A DNA stretch of 64,000 bases from a virus (taxonomy: Duplodnaviria; Caudoviricetes): positions 1-64,000 of the IMG/VR virus record IMGVR_UViG_3300027969_004220. The stretch is one strand, 5' to 3'. Position 1 is the stretch's first letter. Each line of letters begins with the position of its first letter. This document shows positions 19,686 to 57,792 of the stretch, piece by piece. The notes beneath the pieces were generated by a model. That model made no database searches, was not told the origin of the DNA, and worked only from the letters and a program-made list of their open reading frames with translations. Made by a program: the position numbers and the translations under genes.

Positions 19686-20090
19686 ATGAATTTAAAAGAA
19701 CAAATTAGCAAAGACTACATGACTGCTTTCAAAGAAAGAAATGTCGTAGCAAAGAACTTACTTTCTGTAGTGAAAGGAGAAATCCAAACTATTGAAAAAA
19801 ATACAGGAGTAGATTGTCTTTCTGATGCAGAGGTAATTAAAATTCTTAATAAAACTGCAAAATCTCTTAAAGAAGTTATCGCAACTTCTGGTGATGCTGA
19901 ATCTGTAACTCAATTAGAAATGGTTGAAGCTTTACTTCCAGCTGCTATGACAAGAGAAGATGTTGTTGTAAAAGTTAGTGCACTTGTTGCATCAGGTATT
20001 ACCAATGTTGGTGGAATTATGAAAGAGTTTGCTACTTTACAAGTAGATAGAAAAGTTGTATCAGAAGTTATTAAAGAAGTATTAGCATAA
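19686..20090 (+). CDS. GatB/YqeY domain protein
   Basis: MNLKEQISKDYMTAFK...LSDAEVIKIL...LP..MTREDV...GGIMK pattern. Confidence 0.8.
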   Translation: MNLKEQISKDYMTAFKERNVVAKNLLSVVKGEIQTIEKNTGVDCLSDAEVIKILNKTAKSLKEVIATSGDAESVTQLEMVEALLPAAMTREDVVVKVSALVASGITNVGGIMKEFATLQVDRKVVSEVIKEVLA

Positions 20091-21346
20091 TGAAAAATAT
20101 AGTAGAAGAATTAAAATGGCGTGGATTGGTACACGATATAATACCTGGAACGGAGGCTCAACTTTTAAAAGAAGCCACCACCTCTTATATTGGTTTTGAT
20201 CCAACGTCAGATTCTCTACATATCGGTAGTTTAGTTCCAATCATTCTTTTAAAACATATGAAGAACTTTGGTCACAATCCTATCGCACTTGTTGGTGGGG
20301 CCACTGGTATGATCGGTGACCCCTCTGGTAAGTCAAATGAGAGAAATCTGTTAGACGAAGAAACACTTAGTAAAAATGTTGAAGGTATTAAAAATACACT
20401 AACAAGATTTTTAGGTGACACTCCTGTAGTAAATAACTACGATTGGATGTCAAAGTTTAGTTTTATAGATTTTGTACGAGACATTGGTAAAAGAATTACT
20501 GTAAATTACATGTTATCTAAACAATCTGTAAAAAACCGTATTGAAGGTGAAGGAATGTCTTTCACCGAATTTACATACCAGTTGATTCAAGGATACGATT
20601 TCTACCATCTAAACAAAGAACATAACTGTTTATTACAAATGGGTGGTTCAGATCAATGGGGTAACATTACAACAGGAACTGAACTAATTCATAAAATGAA
20701 TCCTGGTAGGGAATCATTTGCAATGACATGTCCTTTACTAACTAAATCGGATGGTTCTAAGTTCGGAAAATCTGAAGGAGGTACAAATATATGGTTAGAT
20801 AAAGATAAGACCTCTGTGTACAAGTTTTACCAATTTTGGATAAATACTGATGATAATGATGCAGAGAAATACATTAAAATCTTTACATTTTTAGATAAAG
20901 AAACTATTGATAATTTAATAGAAGAACATAATAAATCAAAGAACTTATTTTTGTTACAAAAAAAATTAGCAAGAGAAATAACTATTATGGTTCACGGTCA
21001 GCAAGAGTTTGAAAAAGCAATAGAAGCTTCTAACATTTTATTTAATGGTGGAGATTTAAACTTACTTGATGAAGAATTATTTCTAGATATATTTGGTGGA
21101 ATACCACAAGCGAAAGTTCCTATGGAAGATATTCTTGCTGGTATTACAATGACAGACATTCTATTTAAAACAGGTTTCTTAAAATCAAATAATGAAGCTA
21201 GGAGAGCTTTAAAAGAAAACTCTGTTGCAGTAAATAAAATAAAGAGAGAGGAAGACTACATAGTAACAGATGTTGATTTGATAAATGATAAGTTTATCAT
21301 ACTACAAAGAGGCAAGAAAAGTTACTTCTTAGTTGAAGCATCATAG
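20090..21346 (+). CDS. tyrS: Tyrosyl-tRNA synthetase
   Basis: YIGFDPT, HIGS, GGSDQWGNI and KFGKS motifs; C-terminal S4-like domain. Confidence 0.97.
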   Translation: MKNIVEELKWRGLVHDIIPGTEAQLLKEATTSYIGFDPTSDSLHIGSLVPIILLKHMKNFGHNPIALVGGATGMIGDPSGKSNERNLLDEETLSKNVEGIKNTLTRFLGDTPVVNNYDWMSKFSFIDFVRDIGKRITVNYMLSKQSVKNRIEGEGMSFTEFTYQLIQGYDFYHLNKEHNCLLQMGGSDQWGNITTGTELIHKMNPGRESFAMTCPLLTKSDGSKFGKSEGGTNIWLDKDKTSVYKFYQFWINTDDNDAEKYIKIFTFLDKETIDNLIEEHNKSKNLFLLQKKLAREITIMVHGQQEFEKAIEASNILFNGGDLNLLDEELFLDIFGGIPQAKVPMEDILAGITMTDILFKTGFLKSNNEARRALKENSVAVNKIKREEDYIVTDVDLINDKFIILQRGKKSYFLVEAS

Positions 21347-22381: not shown

Positions 22382-22492
22382 ATGAGAACAAATTCAATAC
22401 ATACAAGCTTTAGTAAGTCGTTCAAGTGGTTTAGCCACAAGTTCGGATGTATGAGTATGTCGTTCTCAAAAGAAGATGTTATTTTAGGATAA
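22382..22492 (+). CDS. Attenuator leader peptide 1 (Phe/Lys/Trp/His-rich)
   Basis: MRTNSIHTSFSKSFKWFSHKFGCMSMSFSKEDVILG; precedes a terminator and Lys/Trp/His/Phe tRNAs. Confidence 0.8.
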   Translation: MRTNSIHTSFSKSFKWFSHKFGCMSMSFSKEDVILG

Positions 22493-22521
22493 TGTCATAA
22501 AAGAGAATAAAACATAAACGT

Positions 22522-22554
22522 AAACCCGAACTAAAAAATTAGTTCGGGTTTTTT
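22522..22554 (+). terminator. Attenuator terminator 1
   Basis: AAACCCGAACTAA-aaaa-TTAGTTCGGGTTT plus T-run. Confidence 0.9.
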
Positions 22555-22563
22555 ATTTTATAA

Positions 22564-22649
22564 TCCCTCTTAGCTCAGTTGGTTTGCATTATGCTTAGAG
22601 CAATCGTCTTTTAAACGATGGGTCACAGGTTCGAATCCTGTAGGGGGAA
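22564..22649 (+). tRNA. trnK: tRNA-Lys(UUU) with enlarged D-loop
   Basis: Anticodon arm ATCGT-CTTTTAA-ACGAT; T-loop TTCGAAT; GCA-TTA-TGC insertion in the D-loop. Confidence 0.85.
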
Positions 22650-22658
22650 CTAAAAAAT

Positions 22659-22729
22659 ACGGGTTACTGACAAGGTGTCGGGCAGGTCTCCAAAACCTCG
22701 CTGGGTAGGTTCGATCCCTACAACTCGTG
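22659..22729 (+). tRNA. trnW: tRNA-Trp(CCA), minimal D-arm
   Basis: AGGT-CTCCAAA-ACCT; acceptor ACGGGTT/AACTCGT; G73. Confidence 0.8.
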
Positions 22730-22738
22730 CTAGAATAT

Positions 22739-22813
22739 GGTGATTGTCTTCTAAAGGTTAGGATACCTCCCTGTGAAGGAGGTGGTGCGGTCTCGGGATC
22801 CGTCTTTCACCCA
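22739..22813 (+). tRNA. trnH: tRNA-His(GUG), deviant T-loop and acceptor stem
   Basis: CCTCC-CTGTGAA-GGAGG; G-1 and encoded CCA. Confidence 0.75.
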
Positions 22814-22818
22814 AATAT

Positions 22819-22890
22819 TCCCTCGTAGCAAACTGGTGTAGGCAATAAGCTTTTAACTTATGGGGCTGGGTTCGACTCCCGGCGGGGGAA
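22819..22890 (+). tRNA. trnK: tRNA-Lys(UUU)
   Basis: ATAAG-CTTTTAA-CTTAT; acceptor TCCCTCG/CGGGGGA. Confidence 0.85.
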
Positions 22891-22896
22891 CAAAAA

Positions 22897-22968
22897 GGAG
22901 AGGTAGCTCAGAGGTAGAGCACTGTGTTGAAGCCGCAGGTGTCGTGGGTTCGATCCCCACTCTCTCCA
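22897..22968 (+). tRNA. trnF: tRNA-Phe(GAA)
   Basis: CTGTG-TTGAAGC-CGCAG; canonical D and T arms. Confidence 0.85.
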
Positions 22969-23100: not shown

Positions 23101-23949
23101 ATGGGTTCAAATAACTGGTCGAGAAATGAGGAAGAATTATTAAAGGAAAATTATGGAAAATTAGGTGCAGAAAAGTGTAGTATTTTATTAGGTAGAACTA
23201 AAAGAGCATGTCAGATACGTGCAAAAAAATTGTTACTAAAATATGTAGATGATAGATATAATAAAATCAATTTATTAGAAATTGTAAAAGATTCTAAAAC
23301 AAAATCTGAATGTTTACGTAGATTAAATTTATCAACCAATGCAGGAAATTTTGATACACTTAACAGATATATTAAAAAATATGAAATAGATATATCACAT
23401 TTTGAATGTGTCACAGATGGATTAAAAATTTATGTTTCGAGTATAACAATCCCAATAAAAGATATATTGATAGAAAACTCTACATATAGTAGTACAAATC
23501 ATTTAAAAAAAAGATTATATAAAGAAGATTTAAAACAAAGAAGATGTGAATTATGTAACCAGGGAGAAGATTGGATGGGTAAAAAAATGAGTCTAATTTT
23601 AGATCATATAAATGGAGTAAATAATGATAATAGATTAGAAAATTTAAGAATTGTTTGTCCTAATTGTAATGCAACATTAGATACACATTGTAGAGGAACT
23701 AGAATAACAAAAGAAATAGAGAATAAAGATCATTGTAAATGTGGTGGTAGTAAATGGAAAACAAGTAAATCTTGTGTAGATTGTAGTAAAAAATTACAAA
23801 GAAAAGTTGAAAGACCTTCATTAGAACAAATTTTAGAAGATATAAAAGAAACAAACTATGTCTTAACCGGTAAAAAATATGGTGTTAGTGATAACACTAT
23901 AAGAAAGTGGATAAGACAATATAATGCGGATTTAGCTGAGACGGTTTAG
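23101..23949 (+). CDS. HNH homing endonuclease inside tRNA operon 1
   Basis: CELC...LDHINGVNNDNRLENLRIVCPNCN; its 3' end overlaps tRNA-Phe. Confidence 0.85.
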   Translation: MGSNNWSRNEEELLKENYGKLGAEKCSILLGRTKRACQIRAKKLLLKYVDDRYNKINLLEIVKDSKTKSECLRRLNLSTNAGNFDTLNRYIKKYEIDISHFECVTDGLKIYVSSITIPIKDILIENSTYSSTNHLKKRLYKEDLKQRRCELCNQGEDWMGKKMSLILDHINGVNNDNRLENLRIVCPNCNATLDTHCRGTRITKEIENKDHCKCGGSKWKTSKSCVDCSKKLQRKVERPSLEQILEDIKETNYVLTGKKYGVSDNTIRKWIRQYNADLAETV

Positions 23950-24001: not shown

Positions 24002-24132
24002 TAGAAAGTAGCTCAATTGGTAGAGCACGTAATCATACTTAGTCAGTCTTTCTCTAAGAAATTAGTAGCAATGAAATAAGTTACTTCGCTCTGTTAAAGC
24101 CGTGGTTGTGGGTTCGAGTCCCACCTTTCTAT
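24002..24132 (+). tRNA. tRNA-Asn(GUU)-like gene interrupted by a 58-nt structured insert (24030-24087)
   Basis: Removing the insert restores CGGCT-CTGTTAA-AGCCG; D and T arms canonical. Confidence 0.7.
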
Positions 24133-24176
24133 CAAATAAATAAAAACAAAGAATAAAATTTTAATATATAAATAAT

Positions 24177-24254
24177 ATGAAAACAATTATCACAACATCG
24201 TCAAGTTCGTCTAGTCGCTCAAGTAATTTGAGGGAGGTTCTGTTGTGCTCATAA
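24177..24254 (+). CDS. Attenuator leader peptide 2 (Ser-run plus Arg CGC)
   Basis: MKTIITTSSSSSSRSSNLREVLLCS; precedes a terminator, Arg(ACG) and four Ser tRNAs. Confidence 0.85.
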   Translation: MKTIITTSSSSSSRSSNLREVLLCS

Positions 24255-24275
24255 TTGATATAAAAAATTAGTATG

Positions 24276-24308
24276 AAACCCACAGACTTCAAAGTTTGTG
24301 GGTTTTTT
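24276..24308 (+). terminator. Attenuator terminator 2
   Basis: AAACCCACAGACT-tcaa-AGTTTGTGGGTTT plus T-run. Confidence 0.9.
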
Positions 24309-24318
24309 GTTTTTAATT

Positions 24319-24390
24319 GGTTCCATCGTTTAACGGATAGGATAGGTCGCTACGAACGATCAGGTGGGGGTTCGATTCCCTCTGGAATCA
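24319..24390 (+). tRNA. trnR: tRNA-Arg(ACG)
   Basis: GGTCG-CTACGAA-CGATC. Confidence 0.85.
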
Positions 24391-24399
24391 CAAATATAT

Positions 24400-24482
24400 G
24401 GAGGGTACCGCTAAGGTGGCAAACTGGATTTGAACTCCAGGGGTACGGGCAACTGTACGGGTTTCGATTACTCTATCCTCCT
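24400..24482 (+). tRNA. trnS: tRNA-Ser(UGA)
   Basis: CTGGA-TTTGAAC-TCCAG; long variable arm. Confidence 0.75.
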
Positions 24483-24488
24483 CAAAAT

Positions 24489-24572
24489 AGAGAAGATCTG
24501 GCTGGATGAAGGGCAAATCTTGAAAATTTGTAAAGGGTTACACCTTTGTGGGTTCGAGTCCCACCTTCTCTA
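24489..24572 (+). tRNA. trnS: tRNA-Ser(UGA)
   Basis: CAAAT-CTTGAAA-ATTTG; long variable arm AAAGG/CCTTT. Confidence 0.8.
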
Positions 24573-24578
24573 CAATAT

Positions 24579-24664
24579 AGTGAGTAAGCCTTGATGGTGA
24601 TAGGGTCTGCCTGGAAAGCAGTACGTACGTTTAGATGTATAGGGTTCGATTCCCTTGCTCACTA
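24579..24664 (+). tRNA. trnS: tRNA-Ser(GGA)
   Basis: CTGC-CTGGAAA-GCAG; long variable arm. Confidence 0.8.
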
Positions 24665-24673
24665 CAAAAATAT

Positions 24674-24759
24674 GGAGGATGAATTCACTGGGTAGTGGAC
24701 GCAGTTTGCTAAACTGTTGGTGCGTTAAATCGCATTGGGATCGAGACCTACTTCCTCCG
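24674..24759 (+). tRNA. trnS: tRNA-Ser(GCU)
   Basis: GCAGT-TTGCTAA-ACTGT; long variable arm; G73. Confidence 0.8.
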
Positions 24760-24819
24760 CAAAAAATGGAGTTTTGATTTTTGAGGTAAAGGAAAAGACT
24801 AATTATTTATATATAGATT

Positions 24820-25596
24820 ATGAAAAACATATATAAATGTAAAGAATGTGAATTTGAGACAGATAATAATGCAGTTATTGCCAATCATTATAAGTACAAA
24901 CATAATGATAATAGTGAAATAATATGCATATGTGGAAAAATACTAAAAACAAAAGGTGGATACACATATCATTTAAAGAGTTGTAAAGGTATTAAACAAC
25001 CAAAAGAGAAAGAATGTATAAAGTGTGGATTTATCATAAAAGCCAATTTTGAAAGACACACAAACTATTGTGATGGATCTGGACCTAGACGAAGTAAACC
25101 TAAAGTTAGTCATGGATGGAGTAAAGGATTGACAAAAGATACTGATGAGAGAATTAAAAGATTAAGTAATTCTTTAAAATTAAAAACACCAATTAAACAT
25201 ACAGATGAAACTAAATTACTTTTAAGTAATTTAATTAAGAAGAGGTATGAGGATGGTTGGGAGTCGACTGCAGGCAGATGTAAAAAAATAGAATATAATA
25301 GTAAAGTTGCAGGCATTATTAAAGTTGATGGGAGTTGGGAACTTAAAGTTTCTATTTATCTAGATAGCATAGGGGTTAGATGGATTAGAAATAAAAAAAG
25401 ATTTACATATAATAACACATTAAAAAATTGTATATCAACATACTGTCCTGACTTTTATATCTATGATTGGAATTGTTATATAGAAGTAAAGGGATATAAA
25501 ACTGAACTTGATGATATAAAATGGGAACAATTTAAAGAAAGTTTACAAATATGGGATAAAAATAAATTATTATCACTTGGGATAAGTATATATTAA
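24820..25596 (+). CDS. Zn-finger plus PD-(D/E)XK endonuclease (homing-endonuclease-like)
   Basis: N-terminal CxxC/H fingers; C-terminal GSWE...YCPDFYI...YIEVKGY. Confidence 0.75.
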   Translation: MKNIYKCKECEFETDNNAVIANHYKYKHNDNSEIICICGKILKTKGGYTYHLKSCKGIKQPKEKECIKCGFIIKANFERHTNYCDGSGPRRSKPKVSHGWSKGLTKDTDERIKRLSNSLKLKTPIKHTDETKLLLSNLIKKRYEDGWESTAGRCKKIEYNSKVAGIIKVDGSWELKVSIYLDSIGVRWIRNKKRFTYNNTLKNCISTYCPDFYIYDWNCYIEVKGYKTELDDIKWEQFKESLQIWDKNKLLSLGISIY

Positions 25597-38806: not shown

Positions 38807-38934
38807 AACTTTTTATTTATTTTATAAGGTATATATAAAAAATTGTCACTATATTTGTACTCAGAAAGAAAAAAAGTTCAAAAATATGAAAAGGAAGAAA
38901 AACTTTTTAATATATAGAACTATAAAACATATAT

Positions 38935-39005
38935 CGCGTTAAAGTGTAAAGGTTGCATGAGACTCTCATAAGGTCTACGGGGTGGTTCGAATCCACGATA
39001 CGCTA
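38935..39005 (+). tRNA. trnM: tRNA-Met(CAU), degenerate initiator-like
   Basis: AGACT-CTCATAA-GGTCT; imperfect acceptor stem with C1 mismatch. Confidence 0.6.
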
Positions 39006-39051
39006 CAAAAGAGATAGATAACGATTTAGATACAAGTCTCAAAGAATATAT

Positions 39052-39124
39052 CGCGGGATAGAGCAGTAGGCAGCTCGTGTGGCTCATAACCATAAGGTCG
39101 GAGGTTCGAGTCCTTCTCCCGCTA
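39052..39124 (+). tRNA. trnfM: tRNA-fMet(CAU)
   Basis: CGCGGGA/TCCCGCT with C1:U72 mismatch; TGTGG-CTCATAA-CCATA. Confidence 0.85.
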
Positions 39125-39221
39125 CTAAAAGAATAAAAAAAGTTAAAAAAGATTTGGTGAATTAAAAACTTATCGTATCTTTGTAGAAGAATTAAAAACA
39201 ACAATTTAAAAAATAGAAAAA

Positions 39222-39323
39222 ATGACAACAATTACTAACATAACAATAGCTATCGAAGCCATAGGCGGGTATGAAGCGGGGTATACAATACCATCGGTCA
39301 GAAGCGTTATGTGTATAAAGTAA
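39222..39323 (+). CDS. Attenuator leader peptide 3 (Ile-AUA/Ala/Glu/Gly/Tyr-rich)
   Basis: MTTITNITIAIEAIGGYEAGYTIPSVRSVMCIK; precedes a terminator and Tyr/Glu/Ile(UAU)/Gly/Ala tRNAs. Confidence 0.85.
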   Translation: MTTITNITIAIEAIGGYEAGYTIPSVRSVMCIK

Positions 39324-39350
39324 TGAGTTGAAAAAACATTATTATACAAC

Positions 39351-39388
39351 AAACCCAATCTGACGTAAAAATCAGATTGGGTTTTTTT
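39351..39388 (+). terminator. Attenuator terminator 3
   Basis: AAACCCAATCTGA-cgtaaaaa-TCAGATTGGGTTT plus T-run. Confidence 0.9.
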
Positions 39389-39734: not shown

Positions 39735-39957
39735 TGGGTTAACTTCCGGTGTAGGAACCGGCGTCCTCAGGTAAGGGAGGAAGCTAACAAAGCTAAGGAA
39801 AATGGTGGTAAACAAACCACAAGGTGCGAGACCCCTTTAGCCCACAAAGTAGATATTTGAGTGTAAGCAAGTACAATATCAGTCGTTAGGTTCTTACAGA
39901 CAGTGAACGATGGTCCGAATGTCATTATTCGGTGATGGATACCAGGCAACTCCATCA
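39735..39957 (+). ncRNA. Unknown highly structured RNA of about 220 nt embedded in tRNA operon 3
   Basis: GC-rich; many helices (CCGGT/ACCGG, GCTAAGG/CTTTAGC, GTGGT/ACCAC, GATATT/AATATC, CCGAAT/ATTCGG, TGATGGA/TCCATCA); loop-loop TGTAAG/CTTACA. Confidence 0.7.
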
Positions 39958-39962
39958 TATAT

Positions 39963-40253: not shown

Positions 40254-40880
40254 ATGTCAAAAAATAAAATAAAGTATCACTTTTTGTATAAAACTACAAA
40301 TTTGATAAATAGTAAGTATTATTATGGAATGCATAGTACCTATAAACTAGATGATGGTTATTTAGGATCTGGTAAAATGTTAAGATACTCAATACGTAAA
40401 TATGGTAAAGAAAATTTTAACATCGAAATTATAGAATTTTTTCCTTCAAGAGAAGATTTAGTAAACGCTGAAATGAATTTGATTACAGAAGAAATGGTAG
40501 TTGATAACAAACTATGTATGAACCTTAAAAAAGGTGGTTTAGGTGGATTTACAAAAGAACAATCTCATAAAGGTGCATTAAGGATGTTAGATATAATATG
40601 GAGTGATAGTGATTTTATAACAAGACACAACGAAAGAAAAAGTAAGCTAATCAAAGAACTATATCTAAGTGGTAAAATAAAAAGATGTGACTGGACTGGT
40701 AGAAAACATAGTAAAGATACTATAGAGAAAATGACTTTATCTAAAAAAGGACAAGGATTAGGAGAATCTAATTCACAATTCGGAACTTGCTGGATAACAA
40801 AAGATGGAGAGAATAAAAAAATAACAAAAGAAAAATTAGAAGACTATTTGATGGATGGTTGGATAAATGGAAGAAAATAA
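40254..40880 (+). CDS. GIY-YIG/NUMOD3 homing endonuclease inside tRNA operon 3
   Basis: FLYKTTNLINSKYYYGMH...YLGSG; GRKHSKDTIEKM NUMOD3-like segment. Confidence 0.8.
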   Translation: MSKNKIKYHFLYKTTNLINSKYYYGMHSTYKLDDGYLGSGKMLRYSIRKYGKENFNIEIIEFFPSREDLVNAEMNLITEEMVVDNKLCMNLKKGGLGGFTKEQSHKGALRMLDIIWSDSDFITRHNERKSKLIKELYLSGKIKRCDWTGRKHSKDTIEKMTLSKKGQGLGESNSQFGTCWITKDGENKKITKEKLEDYLMDGWINGRK

Positions 40881-40953: not shown

Positions 40954-41033
40954 CAGTATAAGTGGTTTAAGTTATAGAAATCTCTATATCTAAGACGTTA
41001 GATGAAAAATTTTTATACACCACTTTAATTATA

Positions 41034-41177
41034 AAGATAGTAGTAATATAAAGCGTTACTTCGTATTCAAACGACTATTATAGGTTCGAATCCTATTGTC
41101 TGCTCAAATAATTAAAAATGCAGATATAGTGTAATGGTAACACAGTAAAAACACGTTTAATAAACTTTCTCTATCTT
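41034..41177 (+). tRNA. Circularly permuted tRNA-like gene flanked by the split halves of the insert seen in tRNA-Asn
   Basis: 3' half (anticodon-like arm, ATAGG-TTCGAAT-CCTAT, TGTCTGC-T; 41062-41104) precedes 5' half (GCAGATA-TA-GTGT-AATGGTA-ACAC; 41120-41146). Confidence 0.65.
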
Positions 41178-41182
41178 ACTTT

Positions 41183-57626: not shown

Positions 57627-57731
57627 ATGAAAACAACTAATCTAAATATTAACTTAACGCTGAATGTCTTATGTCTAAGACAAAGACCGGGTTTTGCCTT
57701 ATTTAGAGCAACTGATTTTGATGGTGTGTAA
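57627..57731 (+). CDS. Attenuator leader peptide 4 (Leu/Arg-AGA)
   Basis: MKTTNLNINLTLNVLCLRQRPGFALFRATDFDGV; precedes a terminator and Arg(UCU)/Leu tRNAs. Confidence 0.8.
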   Translation: MKTTNLNINLTLNVLCLRQRPGFALFRATDFDGV

Positions 57732-57759
57732 TCATTAAATTCAAACTAAATATACAAAC

Positions 57760-57792
57760 AAAACCCGAAATTTAAAAGTTTCGGGTTTTTTT
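57760..57792 (+). terminator. Attenuator terminator 4
   Basis: AAAACCCGAAATT-taaa-AGTTTCGGGTTTT plus T-run. Confidence 0.9.

Follow-up and report, generated by a model that had tools for sequence, protein, structure and literature searches.

Candidate leader-peptide attenuators ahead of tRNA operons in a phage genome

Introduction

Why would a phage place a short, serine-rich open reading frame (ORF) and an intrinsic terminator directly ahead of a cluster of transfer RNA (tRNA) genes? The question is raised by a region that we call U2, at positions 24,177 to 24,308 of the virus record IMGVR_UViG_3300027969_004220 (Duplodnaviria; Caudoviricetes), a single record of 105,621 bases whose first 64 kb (64,000 nucleotides, nt) form the stretch analyzed here, referred to below as the window. 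We report that U2 is probably, judging from its sequence, a ribosome-mediated (leader-peptide) transcription attenuator gating a five-gene tRNA operon (Arg-ACG, Ser-UGA twice, Ser-GGA and Ser-GCU). A first-pass annotation of this DNA had proposed such an attenuator, and the proposal gains support from six codon-matched units in this genome, from the same design in a huge phage and in the Maribacter phage Panino, and from at least 15 Ser/Arg loci.

The role of tRNAs carried by phages is debated: they may match the codon usage of the phage, replace a degraded host pool or allow escape from tRNA-cutting defenses. Leader-peptide transcription attenuators are known from the trp, his, leu, thr, ilv and pheA operons of enterobacteria, and in E. 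coli the pheST attenuator places a Phe-codon leader before the phenylalanyl-tRNA synthetase genes.

Results

A serine-rich leader precedes Arg and Ser tRNA genes

The elements of U2 are listed in Table 1. The regulatory run of its leader consists of nine consecutive codons, eight for Ser (TCG twice, TCA twice, TCT once and AGT three times) and one for Arg (CGC). The codon string given in the first-pass annotation agrees with the sequence letter for letter, and a codon count bears out its description of eight Ser codons from both the UCN and AGY boxes plus one CGC. It had also matched the run to two tRNA-Ser(UGA), one tRNA-Ser(GGA), one tRNA-Ser(GCU) and one tRNA-Arg(ACG); these five tRNAs are indeed found downstream, and under strict wobble rules their anticodons can read 9/9 codons of the run. 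Over the whole leader, Ser and Arg account for 11 of 24 codons, a count reached by none of 200,000 equal-length random windows drawn from the long ORFs of the phage.

Behind the leader stands an intrinsic terminator with a T-run at 24303-24308, followed by a G and then TTTTT; the tRNA-Arg gene begins 10 nt on. The gap of about 10 nt between terminator and first tRNA is too short to hold a promoter of its own for the tRNAs. Terminator-like sites number six between 21500 and 25500, compared with a mean of 1.5 in shuffled sequence.

An alternative partner for the terminator 5' arm is predicted where the leader ORF ends. In RNA truncated just ahead of the terminator 3' arm, the minimum free energy (MFE) fold pairs GAGGTTCTGT (24234-24243) with ACAGACTTC (24282-24290) and extends this helix by TCATA (24249-24253) with TATGA (24272-24276). 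The first-pass annotation had proposed this very pairing, which holds up as the MFE fold of the truncated RNA; its strength in this copy is not above that of shuffled sequence. A small hairpin lies next to the antiterminator strand (24218-24232); across 10 orthologues, 96% of its alignment cells are paired, with two double-sided pair changes and a covariation score reached by 0/500 shuffles. It is possibly an RNA polymerase pause hairpin.

In the mechanism that we propose, transcription would begin a few nt before the leader ATG, and a ribosome would translate the 25-codon leader close behind the polymerase. With charged tRNA-Ser or tRNA-Arg(ACG) scarce, the ribosome would stall at codons 8-16 and leave the segment 24233-24251 free; this segment would then pair with the terminator 5' arm, no terminator would form, and the polymerase would enter the tRNA genes. 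With these tRNAs ample, the ribosome would reach the stop codon and cover 24233-24251, the terminator would form, and transcription would stop about 10 nt before the first tRNA. Since the output (tRNA) would relieve the signal (hungry codons), such a switch would exert negative feedback on tRNA supply. From the sequence elements, the codon-tRNA matching, the conservation and the predicted folds, we infer that the leader is translated, that ribosomes stall in it and that stalling sets the regulatory outcome.

A motif found by a whole-genome scan, TTTTAATATATA, marks the candidate promoter. The distance from a motif of this type to the leader ATG is 5-6 nt in five units of the genome; in U3 the distance is the same, but the motif is present only in degenerate form. 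A sigma-70 promoter scan performed no better than on shuffled sequence (20 found, compared with a mean of 18.1), and the promoters of the phage look like those of the Bacteroidota type.

A second element was seen at some units. The 11-mer ATTAGGTAGAT has only four copies in the 105.6-kb genome (22291, 57537 and 58716 in the window, and genome position 67440), each about 90 nt upstream of a leader ATG (U1, U4, U5 and U6) and followed by a TAnnTTTG box. In this phage U2 lacks both the 11-mer and the box; the orthologues of U2 retain a similar element.

Table 1. Positions of the U2 elements, of the downstream tRNA genes and of the related leader-terminator units (coordinates of the window unless stated)
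Feature	Position	Strand	Details
U2 promoter-like motif TTTTAATATATA	24159..24170	+	whole-genome motif scan; core TAATATATA ends 6 nt before leader ATG
U2 leader ORF MKTIITTSSSSSSRSSNLREVLLCS	24177..24254	+	25 codons and TAA; sequence read, ORF list
U2 regulatory run, codons 8-16	24198..24224	+	TCG TCA AGT TCG TCT AGT CGC TCA AGT
U2 small conserved hairpin	24218..24232	+	CTCAA / GTAAT loop / TTGAG; just 5' of antiterminator strand
U2 predicted antiterminator 5' strand	24233..24251	+	core GAGGTTCTGT at 24234-24243; extends to stop codon; duplex nt 57-75
U2 intrinsic terminator	24275..24314	+	arms 24275-24288/24293-24306 (14 bp), loop 24289-24292 (4 nt), T-tract
tRNA-Arg (anticodon ACG)	24319..24391	+	default ARAGORN; Rfam at gathering threshold
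tRNA-Ser (UGA), copy 1	24400..24483	+	relaxed ARAGORN only
tRNA-Ser (UGA), copy 2	24491..24573	+	default ARAGORN
tRNA-Ser (GGA)	24579..24665	+	Rfam gathering-threshold match 24580-24663; anticodon from relaxed ARAGORN
tRNA-Ser (GCU)	24674..24760	+	relaxed ARAGORN; RF01852 (tRNA-clan model) 39.1 bits, sub-threshold
U1 leader MRTNSIHTSFSKSFKWFSHKFGCMSMSFSKEDVILG and terminator	22382..22551	+	ATG 22382; then Lys, Trp, His, Phe, Met tRNAs
U3 leader MTTITNITIAIEAIGGYEAGYTIPSVRSVMCIK and terminator	39222..39384	+	then Tyr, Glu, Ile(UAU), Gly, Ala tRNAs
U4 leader MKTTNLNINLTLNVLCLRQRPGFALFRATDFDGV and terminator	57627..57789	+	then Arg(UCU), four Leu tRNAs
U5 leader MKTNTVNINVITITNCVNSTTSGNEICMV and terminator	58803..58950	+	then Asn, Ile(GAU), Val, Cys, Thr tRNAs
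U6 leader MKNVNVNIVVMPQPMQDQDRFTNQTNYVFISH and terminator	outside window, cluster 67705-68456		leader with PQPMQDQD; Gln, Asp, Pro tRNAs
Panino leader MKTQRLHQELEQPTNIGRDFYGVDGY			before Pro, Glu, Gln, His, Leu, Leu, Arg tRNAs
Panino leader MRAATGIAIIGRTKDKPLGRISVL			before Ala, Lys, Ile, Gly tRNAs
Panino leader MKTKGNTFSWFNYSNCSDCNCGGTGCVCKFDLV			before Tyr, Ser, Ser, Asn, Trp, Phe tRNAs

Six units match leader codons to downstream tRNAs

The same layout of promoter-like motif, short ORF, terminator and tRNA genes occurs six times in the genome (U1 to U6), five of them in the window, where the leader ORFs other than that of U2 start with MKT, MRT or MTT. The leader of U1 is rich in His, Phe, Lys, Trp and Met, that of U3 in Ile, Ala, Glu, Gly and Tyr, that of U4 in Leu and Arg (AGA), and that of U5 in Asn, Val, Ile, Thr and Cys. 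For U6, a leader rich in Gln, Asp and Pro codons was predicted beforehand from a tRNA cluster outside the window, and was then found. Together, the six units serve 19 amino acids.

Own-set residues, those cognate to the tRNAs of the same unit, make up 0.40, 0.46, 0.53, 0.27, 0.79 and 0.26 of the leaders of U1 to U6, respectively. Pairing each leader with its actual operon yields the highest sum among 720 permutations, likewise under strict wobble decoding. When 200,000 random windows were drawn for each unit, the own-set count was reached by none for U2 and U5, by 531 for U1, 960 for U3, 2556 for U4 and 6631 for U6. Enrichment over the proteome on the diagonal of the leader-by-operon matrix ranges from 1.8- to 4.1-fold and is the row maximum in 5/6 rows, U1 being tied with the Ser/Arg set. 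The match extends to the codon level. In U3, which has tRNA-Ile(UAU), ATA makes up 5/7 of the leader Ile codons; in U5, which has tRNA-Ile(GAU) twice, ATT makes up 3/4. The only Arg codon in the run of U2, ahead of Arg(ACG), is CGC, and the leader of U4, ahead of Arg(UCU), contains AGA three times.

In folds of the truncated RNA, the terminator 5' arm pairs upstream in 6/6 units. In U1 to U5 this arm finds its partner within the leader ORF or where the ORF ends; in U6 that segment is occupied in a hairpin upstream, and the spacer past the stop codon pairs with the arm instead. Because the arm pairs upstream in every unit without a ribosome, an untranslated leader should read through, unlike that of trp. 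A ribosome was simulated by masking all RNA up to 12 nt beyond the A-site codon. In this in silico experiment, the antiterminator of 6/6 units holds with the A site on or before the codon run and is gone 1-4 codons past it, which, as modeled, is the geometry required for attenuation. In four units the duplexes stand above those of 300 shuffles each: U1 (-11.2 kcal/mol, reached by 5), U4 (-11.5 kcal/mol, 0), U5 (-11.1 kcal/mol, 1) and U6 (-10.3 kcal/mol, 11).

The Ser/Arg unit is conserved in other phages

A similarity search of GenBank phages matched three uncultured huge phages, and orthologous Ser/Arg units were located in LR745206.1 (634,780 bp) and LR756502.1 (642,428 bp); at least 15 further loci carry such a unit. 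A pattern derived from the leader matched 43 loci in viral contigs (8 true units and 35 chance matches) and at least 117 loci in metagenomes, where the matches listed comprise 5 true units, 2 false Ser-rich ORFs and otherwise chance matches; it counts against using these hits as support that the pattern itself demanded Ser-Arg-Ser. A second pattern, built from the antiterminator and stop region only, matched 11 loci, of which 4 are chance matches in genes and 7 are true units, all with a Ser run. The first-pass annotation had pointed to a homologue alignment as a check for a conserved Ser run, and 7/7 true units from a pattern free of that demand carry one. Arg(ACG) and/or Ser tRNAs lie downstream of the orthologues wherever enough sequence follows.

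The N-terminal MKT is conserved. In an alignment of 10 sequences, the sole indel in the coding part is 3 nt long, and Ser codons swap between the TCN and AGY boxes. An indel that preserves the frame, together with switching between Ser boxes, argues that the leader is translated and selected at the level of translation. The RNA elements are also conserved: 97.5% of the terminator cells are paired, with 3 compensatory pairs, and the antiterminator helix is 92.4% paired, compared with at most 58% when its partner is slid. One antiterminator pair changes from GC to AU and another occurs as GU, GC and AU, covariation that weighs less for coming from few independent events (10 sequences, several of them close kin). 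Among 13 orthologues scored, 12 have their best duplex with the terminator arm at nt 55-75, ending within about 5 nt of the stop codon, and 11 of those 12 duplexes have energies of -9.6 to -12.4 kcal/mol, reached by 3-20 of 200 shuffles.

The same design recurs in a huge phage and in a cultured phage

The huge phage LR745206.1 has 61 tRNA matches and six leader-terminator units. Its operons are divided differently. Tyr/Glu and Ile/Gly/Ala form separate operons with separate leaders (SYESYYEE and ISIAVIGNGAGAI), and Asn, Arg, Leu, Val, Ile, Thr and Met form a single operon with a single combined leader; here too, none of the 720 permutations of leaders over operons surpasses the diagonal one. 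In the window, the U4 leader bears a recognizable similarity to this combined leader, a possible explanation for its Asn, Thr, Val and Cys codons.

The cultured Maribacter phage Panino (PP540027.1) carries three units, in which 11/25, 12/23 and 12/32 leader residues match the unit's own tRNA set, compared with 1-7 matching residues for each other set. Its antiterminator duplexes have predicted energies of -13.3 to -16.7 kcal/mol. A TAnnTTTG box stands four nt before the ATG in 2/3 of the Panino units; by analogy with Bacteroidota promoter geometry, this spacing suggests leaderless mRNAs. Since the design is present in a cultured pair (Panino and Maribacter halichondriae), it is directly testable.

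Two Panino leader ORFs coincide with GenBank coding sequences (CDSs) annotated as "hypothetical protein", PANI_CDS0063 (L176 2251-2346) and PANI_CDS0108 (L177 1090-1191). PANI_CDS0063 is annotated from an upstream TTG, and the conserved MKT start corresponds to an ATG 15 nt further in. The second Panino leader (L176, ATG 3287) is unannotated in GenBank.

Discussion

Evidence that weighs against attenuation

Several other observations speak against reading these units as attenuators. At U2 itself, the antiterminator duplex (-7.2 kcal/mol) was reached by 170/300 dinucleotide shuffles; with two loop bases added (-8.9 kcal/mol) it was reached by 44/200, which makes the window copy the weakest of 12 orthologues. 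The U3 duplex is weak like that of U2 (-6.8 kcal/mol, reached by 170/300 shuffles). Fold predictions for U1 to U5 contain no protector (1:2) hairpin over the antiterminator, and the predicted U2 hairpin at 24218-24232 adjoins the antiterminator strand without overlapping it; in such a model, a missing protector would make the switch reliant on transcription and translation being tightly coupled.

Nor are the leaders exclusive. Codons for Asn, Ile, Val and Thr abound in all of them, and residues of the U5 set amount to 0.20-0.50 of the leaders of the other units; in raw counts, Asn/Ile/Val/Thr residues exceed the own set in U4 and U6, and the U1 leader is enriched equally for the Ser/Arg set and its own. 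Among the relatives, L057 departs from the scheme: its terminator differs, and no clear antiterminator occupies the usual position. Of five viral contigs matched by a tRNA-Arg pattern, the close relative L003 has the leader and L002, L004, L005 and L006 do not. RNA contigs from three lake metatranscriptome runs, out of 24 runs identified, map only to 23272-23757 (an HNH gene) and 22743-22954 (three U1 tRNAs), and none lies over the U2 leader or terminator. Finally, the 5.2-kb tRNA region of the Bacteroides phage crAss001 has no terminator-like site and no matching short ORF; the leader-terminator design is not universal among phages.

Alternative explanations

Passage of a promoter-proximal terminator by a modified polymerase is a known phage strategy, exemplified by lambda Q at tR'. 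With this precedent, the terminators described here could be overcome by a phage-encoded processive antitermination factor, or could simply be leaky; they would then serve as a timer or a constant brake, and the short ORF would be incidental. The two different promoter-like motifs before most units and a U2 antiterminator no stronger than chance fit such a scheme. We nevertheless find it unlikely, because it leaves unexplained the enrichment of leaders for the codons of their own tRNAs in three independent genomes, the kept reading frame with its Ser box switching, and a complement to the terminator arm just past the codon run in 6/6 units.

Leader translation could also control termination while reporting the general speed or availability of ribosomes, the codon bias having some other cause. 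The antiterminator is predicted to form without a ribosome, so any slowing of translation would open the gate, and many Asn, Ile, Val and Thr codons are common to all leaders. Set against this is specificity at the level of the anticodon, with ATA and ATT used for two different Ile tRNAs and CGC and AGA for two different Arg tRNAs, and leader content that tracks operon content when operons split or merge; we judge a general sensor to be decidedly unlikely.

A third possibility is that the short ORFs encode small functional peptides, that the hairpins merely end these genes and that the tRNAs are transcribed by other means. The listing of two Panino leaders as hypothetical proteins in GenBank and the conserved N-terminal MKT agree with it. 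The distance of only about 10 nt from terminator to first tRNA does not, nor do peptides that vary freely outside the codon classes and the part encoded by the antiterminator strand, nor a composition that tracks the downstream tRNAs, and this possibility appears very improbable.

That the leader RNA senses uncharged tRNA directly and without translation, as T-box leaders do when they choose between terminator and antiterminator according to tRNA, is scarcely credible given the lack of a T-box match at the gathering threshold or in a relaxed search, a leader of only about 130 nt with several tRNAs to be sensed at once, and a 3-nt indel and Ser box switching that indicate translation.

Relation to known systems

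The leader-peptide attenuation that we favor has much in common with that of amino-acid operons: regulatory codons clustered in a short ORF, an intrinsic terminator ahead of the first gene, a predicted alternative pairing of the terminator 5' arm with the end of the leader ORF, and a ribosome whose position would decide between the two. It differs in belonging to a phage, in that it would regulate tRNA genes and not biosynthetic enzymes, and in that most leaders would poll several amino acids. Unlike trp, 5/6 units have no protector (1:2) hairpin over the antiterminator, and their predicted default without translation is read-through. The best resemblances in Rfam are to His_leader (RF00514; 32.4 bits, with a cut-off of 49) and Thr_leader (RF00506; 22 bits, with a cut-off of 55); both matches fall below the gathering threshold, and the aligned part is largely the terminator.

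The pheST attenuator is similar in that leader-peptide attenuation governs part of the translation apparatus, a shortage of charged tRNA raising the machinery that supplies it; it differs in controlling synthetase and not tRNA genes, in sensing one amino acid and in being chromosomal. T-box riboswitches likewise report tRNA status through a choice between terminator and antiterminator, but in them uncharged tRNA binds to the RNA itself, translation plays no part, and the leaders are far longer and have conserved motifs; the T-box covariance model gave no match here, whether at the gathering threshold or with E allowed up to 1. Phage crAss001 shares with this genome many tRNA genes in the same orientation among small genes and homing endonucleases, as well as Bacteroidota-type promoters, and differs in that its tRNAs come straight after a promoter or a gene.

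Our literature search found no description of leader peptides or attenuators ahead of tRNA genes. A term search of the huge-phage paper (PMC7162821, main text) gave 0 occurrences of "attenuat", "leader" and "terminator"; for the Panino paper (PMC11590407, main text) it gave 0 of "leader" and "terminator", and "attenuat" appears in a passage of the reference list. The supplements of both papers may hold details on tRNAs.

We consider it somewhat probable that some phages regulate their own tRNA supply in this manner, through a set of attenuators that polls 19/20 amino acids and turns tRNA genes on only when ribosomes starve for them. Starvation could arise because host tRNAs are depleted, are mismatched to the codon usage of the phage or are cut by host anticodon nucleases. 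If so, these units would be the first case in which leader-peptide attenuation governs tRNA genes, and would equip the phage with an inbuilt sensor for attacks on the tRNA pool. Codon-resolved feedback for each tRNA operon would mean that the phage gauges decoding capacity directly and responds to it, and textbook attenuation would be extended to a new class of genes and to viruses. The units would also provide natural, compact sensors for the shortage of particular charged tRNAs, and would account for the grouping of tRNAs by amino acid in these genomes.

Genome context and tRNA gene inventory

The window is AT-rich (about 25-36% G+C). It holds about 35 tRNA genes, every one on the + strand (ARAGORN, Rfam). 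Relaxed ARAGORN with introns gave 229 calls that are largely noise, and only those within tRNA clusters were kept. For the five tRNAs of U2, default ARAGORN detects 2/5, Rfam at the gathering threshold 2/5 and relaxed ARAGORN 5/5. The window also encodes a tyrosyl-tRNA synthetase and a YqeY-like protein; the two genes, the synthetase being full-length, lie at 19686-21346 and immediately precede the first tRNA operon.

Two Met(CAU) tRNA genes (38933 and 39052; stretch 38933-39125) stand behind a TTTTAATATATA motif without a leader ORF or terminator, and this pair is the sole tRNA group of the genome without a putative attenuator. A third Met(CAU) gene, which bears an intron, belongs to U1. A tRNA gene at 24002-24133 (Rfam, 44.8 bits) abuts the U2 promoter-like motif on its upstream side; ARAGORN calls it Met(CAU) with an insertion of about 51 nt beside the anticodon, and in L003, a close relative, this gene is also present, its insert being slightly longer.

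Long tRNAs of 82-94 nt or D-loop insertions are common for amino acids whose tRNAs normally have short variable arms. Unusually long or inserted examples are found at 22564-22650, 59048-59136, 59133-59226, 59899-59982, 60152-60240 and 60555-60636, and the huge phage likewise has Lys tRNAs of 84-87 nt (L001).

ORFs resembling homing endonucleases or zinc-finger proteins lie inside the operons behind the putative attenuators, between tRNA genes (23101-23949, 24820-25596, 40254-40880 and 59350-59886). Their Pfam matches fall under the curated cut-offs (HNH, E ~7e-4; SegE GIY-YIG domain, E ~9e-4). The TTTTAATATATA motif or a close variant precedes the ORFs at 23101, 40254 and 59350; the sequence before 24820 was not searched for it. 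Two stretches of about 230 nt between tRNAs of U3 (39735-39960 and 40955-41180) have no tRNA call and no long ORF, and their G+C content and appearance suggest structured RNA.

DNA contigs of a related lake population (one DNA run) skip 22554-22815, that is, 260 nt with the first three tRNA-like genes of U1, and also skip 24407-24498, 90 nt with one of the two Ser-UGA genes. These skips indicate that the tRNA content of the operons differs between strains.

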